From positions 5,728,001 through 5,792,000 of the forward strand of contig JASGJH010000001.1 in assembly GCA_047601445.1 (NCBI GenBank): a DNA stretch of 64,000 nucleotides, written 5' to 3'. The notes beneath the pieces are model-generated. The model was not told the DNA's origin, did not search any database, and was given only the letters and a program-made list of their open reading frames with translations. Origin of the DNA: Myxococcales bacterium (lineage in GTDB: Bacteria; Myxococcota_A; Polyangia; Polyangiales; DASUME01). A program made the translations under genes and the position numbers. This document shows positions 1 to 8,541 of the stretch, piece by piece (position 1 is the first letter of the stretch; each line of letters opens with the position of its first letter).

Positions 1-3000
1 ATCGAGTCCGTCGGCGTCGTAGATCCGCAGCTTGAAGGCACCGTCCATGGGTCGGCCACGCAGCTCCGAACGCCAGTAGTCGGACATCAAGTTGCGGTCT
101 GCGCTCGACAGCGGGTTGGTCAGGTAGCGCTCGGCGAGGAGTGCCTTGGCCTGTTGGATCTGGCCGGGGAAGAGCGGTGCATTGACCGCCGTGCCGTCAT
201 AGGTACGAACCCGGTACGGACCGCTTTGATTCAGCGAGTACTGCAGGAAGCTTCCGCCGTAGCAAGCCGACGGTGTCGTGCTCGAGGAGCAATCCTTGAC
301 GCCGGTGCCCACGAGATTCACGCCCACTTCGTCGAAGCGATAGTTGAAGTTACCGCGCGCAAAGCCTGCTTGGGGGATCAGCGTGCCCTTCTCGATCTCT
401 TCGAGCGGCATGCCGAAGTCGGTCTCCCAGAAGCAGCGTTGCGGCAACTTCGAGATGTTCCCATTGGCCGCGCAGTCTTTGCCCGTGCCGGGCGGGCAAT
501 AGTACTCGCAGCCACGATGCCAGCGATCACGGAACTTCTGACTTGGGAGGTCATCAGCGCTGCCCTCCGTTTCTAGCGCTGCACCCGTGGCAAAGTAGGT
601 ACGCGGATAGGCGGACTCATCGGATTGCATGAGCTCCAGCTGCATCGCAGCGAGTGTCTGAGCCGACGTCGAGGCAACGAAGCCCACGCCGAGCGTACCC
701 TCTTTCGCCACCTCAACGGGTGCGAAGTAGCGAACCCATCCCTGCGCGAGCGAGGAGTCGAAGATCGCTCCGGGCATGGTTTGGTTGGGAAGCGGCACAG
801 GGTGCATGGTGAGAACCACCCCGGGATCGAGCAGCTCCGATGTTCCGTCGGGATAGTCCAGCCAGACGTCCGCCGTCGGTTCGGACTCTGGCTGGTACCA
901 GCTCAGCCAGTGACTCCCGGGAATGACGGAGACGATTTGACGCATGCGCGCCGGTCCTGGAACTGCCTGAATACCGCCGACTGCACCGGTTCCCGCAATC
1001 GGACCATGCTCAACGCCGTACTTGGTCAGCAACTGCTCGTGGAGTGCCTTGATGTCACTCTCCAAGCGCGGGATGACGTGGTGCTGATACTCCGCAATCG
1101 CACCGTTGAGAAATTGACCCGTGAGCCCACCGATGAGGCGGAAGCTCGAGATGACCGGCGACTGATGGGAGTCGAGGACGAGCGCGCCGTTCACGAAGAC
1201 CTGGATCAGAGATTGACTCTTCAATCCATGCACCGAGACAACGAAAGGCTTGTGCGGAGTCACGACTCCCGCTGCACTCGTGCTGACAAGCTGGTTCGCC
1301 TGAGAGTCCCAAGTGAGCTTCAACTGACCCGTGCTGGCATCCACCGCGAGGAGCATTGGCGTCGCGTTCCCCATGGCCTGATACCAGAGTTGGTGAAGCC
1401 CGGTTTCGCCGTCGACCCGACCAATGAGAGTCGTGGTGAAGTCATCGAATGCCGTCGGCACGAAGTTGCACGTGGTAGCCGTGGTAGATGTGCAGCTTGC
1501 TCCATCGGTGGCGAGAACGGACAAGTATCCGTTCGAGAACTGCAGCGCCTTGTGGTTGGGCGTGAAGTCGACAAGCGGCTGTCCTCCCGACGCGCTGTAG
1601 ACCAAGCCCGTTTGGCGATCATGGATCGCTGTCGTGGAGCCGGGAAAGCCCGACACCGTACTAACTCCCTGGTGGCTTCGCGCGTTTGCAATATCGTCAG
1701 CCTCGAGCCAGCGCGCTGGGGCGTCATATCGCACACCGTAGCGGTCGGCAAAGTAGGCGTGCAGCTGACCGACCTCCGTGTCTGAGAGGCTTCGGGAATA
1801 GCTCAGATGATCGGCCAACTGGACCATCCCACCTGTAGTCGGGAGCGCGACGTAGCTTCCGAGCAGCTGCGGAAAGGCAGGTGCTGTCGTTCTCGCCCGG
1901 AGCTGACCGTCTACGTACAGTCGCGACCCATCCGGCCCGCTCGCAGCGATGATGACCTGCGGACGACCTGCGGACGACGTAGTCCCTGCGGCCGCCGCTC
2001 CCGAGAGGGCGGAGACGCCGGGAGGCGAGTTCGTTGTGAACCGGTAGTCGACGTCCGAGGTGGTAAACCGCAGCAGCAAAGCGCCTTGTGCATAGCCGCT
2101 GTTGTTGAAGGTGACGGACGAGTTGTCGAGCCTGCGCGCGACGACTGCGATCGTGAACGCCGAAGACGGCGAGGGGAGAGTAGGCACCCACATTCCCGTC
2201 GTCTGCAGCGTCGGCTTCCCGCCGATGCCATTTGCCACGAGCGGGATCGGATTGCCGGCAGTCGGGTACGACTTGGCGATTCGAGTCGGTGATGATGAGT
2301 TGCTGGCTCCAGTCCGGTTGGGGCACTCAGAGACCATATTCGGCTGGCCCGAGACCGCCGTACACGAATCCGCGCGGTACCAGAGCTCAAGTCCGGTTAG
2401 CGGCGGCTGGAGGGGCGTCCCCGGCTGCTGAGGAGACGACCCGAGGTCGGTCTCGCACTCATCGACGTCCTTCGATGCGAGAGAGATGGACTGCGCAGCA
2501 GCCAGCGACCCGCACGCAACGCTCGACGAGCATCCAAAGGGCGACGAAGCGACCGCGGGCGGAGTCAGCGCAGTGGCACCTTCTCCACAGGTAAACTCCC
2601 AGCCGTGCGCCACCCCATCAGCGTCGATGCTGGACGGCTGCTCCCCGTCGGTGTGATAGAGCATGTTCCAGCTCTGCGGAGGCGTTGGCGTAGATGCCTT
2701 CATGATGTCATCACTTAGCGACACCACGGCGATGTCCTCACCCGCCTGGAACGGCATGTCGACGCTGTAGGACTCGACAAAGTTTTGAAGCTTCGTCACC
2801 CAGTCGCCTACGTAGCCGTCAGCGTAGTTGTAGTCGTCAGGTGCCGAGCTTGCGGTGCTCGCTTGACCTGCGTTGCGAATACGTTCGTAGTCGATGCCAC
2901 TCAAGCTGCAGAGCTTGTCCGCCCACTTGTTCGGCGCCTCCACGAGCGTCATGTCTTGGTCCATGACGCTGAGATCGACCCCCAACCGCTGCTCCACGGC

Positions 3001-8541: not shown

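Follow-up and report, generated by a model that had tools for sequence, protein, structure and literature searches.

The left end of a 64,000-nt stretch of a Myxococcales bacterium genome (hereafter the window; positions 5,728,001–5,792,000 of contig JASGJH010000001.1, written G000:C1 below, assembly GCA_047601445.1) carries a minus-strand gene for a very long lipoprotein resembling TcA, the A subunit of toxin complex (Tc) toxins; we call its product the A protein. Its frame is free of stops over 2,847 codons from window position 8541 to 1 and reaches the left window edge, as an initial annotation of the window had read it; beyond the edge the frame reads on for 20 residues and ends 62 nt further out, at G000:C1:5727938, giving an intact gene of 2,867 aa (window 1..8541; G000:C1:5727938-5736541). 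The codon pattern is of the coding type (GC content 0.70 at third vs 0.49 at second codon positions), and all motif positions were confirmed: Cys23 at 8475, Cys1674 and Cys1703 at 3522 and 3435, RYERARD at 3054, GNFNY at 354 and RGRPM at 60. The GC content is 0.58-0.61 over most of the gene (window 2001-8000), vs 0.64-0.72 beyond 10 kb.

The gene starts with a signal peptide and a lipobox at Cys23 (8473..8541, minus strand), assigned from the sequence and from prevalence in relatives: a lipobox-like N-terminus, scored by a sequence pattern rule rather than SignalP and including one match that looks spurious (locus L040), was found in 34 of 40 related loci with a complete 5′ end and in 35 of 53 called proteins. 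Since the rule used for the 40 loci selected 280 of 1,181 long open reading frames (ORFs) of the source genome, the lipobox is, judged from these patterns, not a chance match. The canonical Tc complex is soluble and lacks a signal peptide, its release by lysis being named in the title of a cited work; the lipobox seen by the initial annotation is kept across the family, and the remark made there that such a signal is atypical for canonical TcA was apt.

Prediction of the domain layout, all on the minus strand, revealed an N-terminal region (residues 24-1496; 4054..8472) with a largely helical module without recognised fold and further Cys-rich domains; the stretch just before the hairpin module is variable and of low confidence in the model of a relative. 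Next comes a predicted antiparallel helical hairpin (residues ~1587-1806; ~3126..3783) with a Gly/Ala-rich tip between Cys1674 and Cys1703 (3433..3522), which bears out the earlier claims of long helices at ~3000-3800 and of a Cys-bracketed tip. Helices and the first strand of a TcB-binding-like domain (residues ~1813-1955; 2677..3105) are followed by a CBM4-like beta-sandwich (residues ~1956-2657; 573..2676) inserted in this domain, and the bulk of the TcB-binding-like beta domain (residues ~2658-2867; 1..572, the final 20 residues lying outside the window) closes the protein. The CBM4-like domain is itself interrupted by a LamG-like insert (residues 2041-2529; 955..2421), present as initially annotated but larger than the ~1735-2400 given there. 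This insert, with top ESM Atlas scores of 0.97-0.98 (Laminin_G_3 among them), is restricted to the clade nearest this protein and probably holds two LamG units, as read from the sequence; its two halves gave no significant alignment to each other. CBM4 and LamG folds bind glycans.

Retrieval of the left flank revealed a TcB-TcC-like gene directly beyond the A gene, just outside the window, in which the initial annotation had rightly seen none. This BC gene (L001:11079-18893; G000:C1:5720079-5727893, minus strand) begins 44 nt past the A stop as a 2,604-aa frame with a signal-like N-terminus, and its matches to SpvB (E 1e-28), TcdB_midN, FG-GAP and RHS identify it, at the level of sequence, as a TcB-TcC fusion. 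Its RHS core and tip are encoded in other frames, so BC is broken near its 3′ end in the source assembly. A LamG-like insert can be read in BC just before the RHS core motif (residues ~2300-2575), likewise in L006; the spacing at this place is 298 residues in L006 vs 24-36 in seven others. After the tip lies a 149-aa ORF (L001:9613-10062; G000:C1:5718613-5719062, minus strand) with a GC content of 0.55 vs 0.64 and no family match, putatively immunity-like by position alone, and then an accessory lipoprotein gene in two frames of 430 and 1,371 aa (L001:4487-9728; G000:C1:5713487-5718728, minus strand). Intact accessory homologues contain two copies of a module homologous to the helical N-terminal module of A, a Cys-rich repeat and a propeller-like C-terminus. 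A and BC are separated, at L017:10637-12241 and ~20 other loci, by a conserved ~530-aa lipoprotein that has a Cys-rich acidic repeat and a propeller-like C-terminus and is a possible chaperone or co-anchor; in the clade of the source genome its homologue is fused to the two A N-terminal modules. The closest named relative, L012, is intact and has the same order of A, BC, small gene and accessory gene.

Relationship of the A protein to TcA

A Foldseek search with the C-terminal model of an insert-free relative placed TcA chains at the head of the list, and the predicted C-terminal beta domain of this model matched the TcB-binding domain of TcdA1. Directly before this domain, helices 89-161 and 168-255 of the model form a long hairpin, colinear with TcdA1 2062-2516 and alike in shape. 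Comparison of deeper alignments with canonical TcA C-termini gave 563 colinear columns (E 6.6e-4), with a score of 43 vs 28 for the reversed control and 14-31 in eight shuffles; profile comparisons of single-domain slices were mostly not significant or close to their reversed controls. These matches, together with the TcB-TcC gene beside the A gene, uphold the TcA-like C-terminal half proposed from the window.

None of the TcA profiles PF18276, PF20220, PF18413 and PF03538 matched the A protein or 20 relatives, and PF18276 matched a canonical Tc locus alone in the source genome. Searches of Pfam, NCBIfam and PDB sequences with the A protein gave no informative match to TcA or any pore-forming toxin. 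Weak matches to spike, haemagglutinin, chemoreceptor and MakA/Nhe helices were dismissed as generic coiled coil, and Cry1/Vip3 rows in Foldseek likely reflect the CBM-like insert and long helices. For the N-terminal model of relative L036 (1,194 residues; predicted local distance difference test score (pLDDT) 70, partly low-confidence and too large for a domain-level reading), Foldseek returned nothing at E <= 0.001, and TcA chains were absent from the rows listed, a result compatible with remote kinship to the TcA shell, which is alpha-helical with neuraminidase-like and receptor-binding domains and a trefoil knot. In TcA, a stretched linker joins the shell to the channel; in this model, pLDDT is <50 over residues 996-1186, directly ahead of the hairpin module, from either disorder or poor alignment.

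Like TcA (Photorhabdus TcdA1, Xenorhabdus XptA1/XptA2, Yersinia TcaA-TcaB, YenTcA), the A protein has a hairpin followed by a TcB-binding-type domain that reaches the final residues, and both families measure 2,000-2,900 aa and are encoded beside B/C genes. In contrast to TcA, the A family has a lipoprotein signal, a Cys-bracketed hypervariable tip, a Cys-rich make-up and an accessory lipoprotein in the operon, lacks the four profile matches, and has an N-terminal region not recognisable as a TcA shell. In PMC6795518 (our comparisons with cited papers cover passages located by term, and supplements may list members), the conserved TcA core comprises the linker, channel and TcB-binding domain and the receptor-binding domains lie in the shell, whereas the CBM4-like and LamG domains of A lie in the docking domain. 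Because the TcA profiles do not match and a signal is present, despite the TcA-like predicted fold and gene context, we do not file the A protein as canonical; the A family is a variant of TcA, set apart from canonical members.

Family distribution and hairpin variation

A search with the hairpin region found 53 proteins, three of them from the source genome. With a C-terminal-module profile, the yield was 864 clusters at E <= 1e-30 and 1,307 at 1e-3. The 79 loci from named genomes were mostly titled Polyangiales, Polyangiaceae, Sandaracinaceae, Myxococcales, Myxococcota or Deltaproteobacteria, with a few under other labels. In a sample of 401 genomes from the phylum to which one member genome belongs, the A family was present in 14 and canonical TcA in 22, and both together only in G559. 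A metagenome scan using the single A protein gave 2 loci. Most members have 2,000-2,300 aa, an insert of ~550 aa being the mark of the clade nearest the A protein. A same-strand SpvB-type gene follows in 38 of the 41 loci (of the 79) with at least 3 kb downstream; partner N-termini resemble cleavable signals (34/48 pass a hydrophobicity cut), and the Asp motif pair of the RHS core is kept in 12 of 13 partner genes. A literature search, with subscription papers mostly outside its reach, found no description of the A family. A distant subfamily of 1,363-1,616 aa lacks the CBM insert (L142:4066-8781, L143:3964-8811, L144:7863-11951 and L145:1215-6710); the L142 and L143 genes sit before RHS-core genes, and L145 has two short genes, each terminating in the C-terminal beta domain. 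The BC gene at L138:6329-13762 lacks a standard RHS-core motif and has a weak P-loop match close to its C-terminus.

The Cys pair flanks the Gly/Ala-rich tip in 57 of 60 aligned relatives, with tips of 10-41 aa, and the tip between Cys1674 and Cys1703 is likely clamped by a disulfide; the hydrophobicity of the tip is weak. Alignment-based analysis of arm lengths in the 209 sequences with all anchors (17 of 226 unique sequences were dropped for want of anchors) revealed arms of 66/107 residues in 177 sequences, 87/128 in 7, including the A protein, and 94/135 in 2; in the remaining 23, one arm was altered more than the other. Tips in this set measure 10-42 residues. This count superseded counting by strict motifs, which covered just 35/249 and 50/225 sequences. 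Both arms of the A protein are 21 residues over the family norm, and arms are extended equally by three or four heptads, as an antiparallel coiled-coil hairpin requires, in few independent events. A four-copy complex prediction for hairpin residues 62-305 of a relative scored 0.30 vs a mark of 0.42.

Variable tips, proposed mechanism and its alternatives

The BC tips vary among loci and include HINT with Tox-ART-HYD1, Peptidase_M91 (L064), a weak deaminase-like match and one type common to Streptomyces HINT polymorphic toxins. A small low-GC gene lies at or overlaps the stop in 5 of 11 complete partners (L004, L135, L136, L141 and L143). One of these belongs to an intact paralogous system in the source genome (L004 and upstream; G000:C1:8130559-8154278), with an A protein of 2,765 aa, a BC protein of 2,674 aa and a 105-aa immunity-like gene. 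The tip of this paralogue shares 39% identity over 99 aa, flush to the C-terminus, with a plasmid-encoded S-type pyocin-domain protein (NZ_CP106659.1), and the ORF after it shares 32% identity over 99 aa with the gene overlapping that bacteriocin gene; the cassette is putatively a toxin/immunity pair, "immunity" here coming from position and homology. Common to the S-type pyocin/colicin-like bacteriocins and this locus is only the payload cassette, delivery being unrelated. ESM Atlas placed the tip with RNase-type polymorphic toxin clusters (0.84-0.89; a lead only), a homologue search with the 105-aa ORF gave itself alone and a PDB search nothing, and the tip piece of the locus adjoining the window had no plasmid match.

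We consider it likely that the 2,867-aa A protein is the membrane-tethered needle (A subunit) of a Tc-like injection system that docks BC and delivers its variable tip to neighbours. Within this proposal, the pairing of A with BC is highly probable and a translocating channel formed by the A hairpins is probable; tethering on the outer surface or on vesicles is slightly favoured, and the odds that bacteria are among the targets are about even. That A is anchored at the surface and serves predation or competition is our inference. By analogy with TcA, A would be exported by Sec and lipidated, and BC would be exported by Sec with a cleavable signal; A would be held at the outer membrane or on vesicles and oligomerise (five copies, as in TcA), with the hairpins making the channel and a disulfide holding the tip. 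The BC propeller would dock on the ring of TcB-binding domains, the BC tip being self-cut inside the RHS capsule, and upon contact the hairpin would enter the target membrane and the tip would be threaded through. Small downstream genes would shield kin where the tip is an antibacterial enzyme.

Several points weigh against the syringe proposal. The structural evidence comes from the model of an insert-free relative and not from the A protein itself, a profile comparison with canonical TcA C-termini was weak though in register (45 columns, E 1.6e-4), and the N-terminal 1,500 aa have no TcA shell match. The docking domain contains the lectin-like inserts, and in solved TcA this domain is far from the hairpin tip, at the other end; the inserted domain proposed by the initial annotation is therefore present, but its label as a receptor domain is uncertain. 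Loci L030, L042 and L089 lack an SpvB-type gene, as does G445 over 19 kb, and 5 of 11 complete partners have no small downstream gene, a further one having a doubtful 65-aa frame.

The same Tc-like syringe might instead target eukaryotes, either grazers or prey (protists, fungi, nematodes), the immunity-like genes being passengers of the tip cassettes. The glycan-binding folds of CBM4 and LamG, the peptidase-like nature of some tips (Peptidase_M91, L064) and the 6 of 11 complete partners without a convincing small downstream gene suit this alternative, which we regard as unlikely given the tightly linked low-GC small gene in the other 5 and the tip and next-gene pair common with a bacteriocin locus. 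Song 2021 (PMC7861908) describes Tc toxins as weapons against eukaryotes, in line with such targets, and Tc loci as lacking immunity proteins, in contrast to the linked small genes found here. Very improbable, in our estimate, is an exporter in the producer's own envelope, in which A, anchored at the periplasmic face, pushes the BC tip out across the outer membrane: A and BC each have a Sec-type signal, their first encounter would be in the periplasm, and no outer-membrane exporter was recognised among conserved neighbours, but the glycan-binding folds of A and the LamG-like insert in BC of the clade fit an extracellular place, and needle length and tip sequence vary as expected from tuning to different targets. 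Least probable is a stalk or adhesin on the surface that makes no pore and retains the TcB-binding fold only for display of BC, with the hairpin as a structural coiled coil; the weak tip hydrophobicity, the generic coiled-coil matches of the hairpin and the N-terminal module in an accessory lipoprotein without hairpin agree with it, but the hairpin, next helix and beta domain follow the TcA order, and arms of fixed length that carry a free Gly/Ala tip between two Cys are suited to an inserting loop.

The partner-gene type is already known, since Zhang et al. 2012 (PMC3482391) define "TcdB/TcaC" polymorphic toxins with signal peptide, SpvB, integrin-like propeller and RHS, a definition that BC fits; they sometimes have HINT, carry variable tips with immunity genes and include those of deltaproteobacteria. 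In the first 300,000 of the 357,715 characters of that paper, "TcdA", "TcaA", "VRP1" and "toxin complex" do not occur and no A-type translocon is named. The bacterial teneurin-like proteins of PMC13018210 are enriched in Myxococcota, the phylum of the A family, and are predicted Sec/SPII lipoproteins with a YD shell, C-terminal toxins and immunity genes; they combine FN-plug, NHL and YD-shell in one chain, whereas in the present system a separate TcA-like chain bears the anchor and the capsule belongs to the SpvB/TcB type. The text of PMC7861908 contains no mention of "myxo", "lipoprotein" or "signal peptide", and that of PMC12705794 none of "myxo" or "lipoprotein".

The A family is a lipoprotein TcA-like family, missed by standard profiles, that pairs with signal-bearing BC capsules and bacteriocin-like payloads. 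More tentatively, lipid-anchored Tc syringes may be widespread in myxobacteria and inject bacteriocin-type enzymes into bacteria on contact, with the shell replaced, the needle varying in heptad steps and the variable tip clamped by a disulfide. If this holds, the Tc mechanism would also serve in contact-dependent conflict among bacteria, and the syringe would add a candidate killing device to the Polyangia, a class in which many members are described as predators. The SpvB/RHS polymorphic toxins with signal peptide listed in 2012 would also gain a candidate translocon. The natural series of needle lengths makes a link between channel length and target envelope testable.

Other loci in the source genome and the window

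The accessory lipoprotein frame of the intact paralogous system is 2,228 aa long and, as read from its sequence, includes a protease-like part at the N-terminus. A third, frameshifted copy lies at G000:C1:9446173-9469263 and 123584-137446; 13.4 kb of it is duplicated near the contig start at 99.7% identity with 17 indels, 9 of them single-base in homopolymers, which suggests assembly noise, so that breaks in the source genome may not be real. The region G000:C1:1-120000 has a GC content of 0.55-0.58 vs 0.66 for the genome and is possibly a chimeric join; one ORF in it has a prepilin-type N-terminus that we take to be of the kind found in Planctomycetes. The canonical Tc locus of the same genome (G000:C1:147722-164803) has VRP1, ABC_toxin_N, Neuraminidase and TcA_TcB_BD, with an SpvB-like gene on the opposite strand, and an SpvB/RHS gene at G000:C1:6884590-6891520 (L009) has no adjoining A-family gene.

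Within the window, an RCC1-repeat protein with a lipobox-like start (9051-10709, minus strand) is encoded directly upstream of the A gene, and a second one, with EGF-like repeats, at 33674-37078 (minus strand). A cytochrome c fused to copper type II monooxygenase domains is encoded at 10862-12430 (minus strand), and two ORFs of ~1,230 aa without useful Pfam match lie at 24253-27918 and 28231-31962 (both minus strand).
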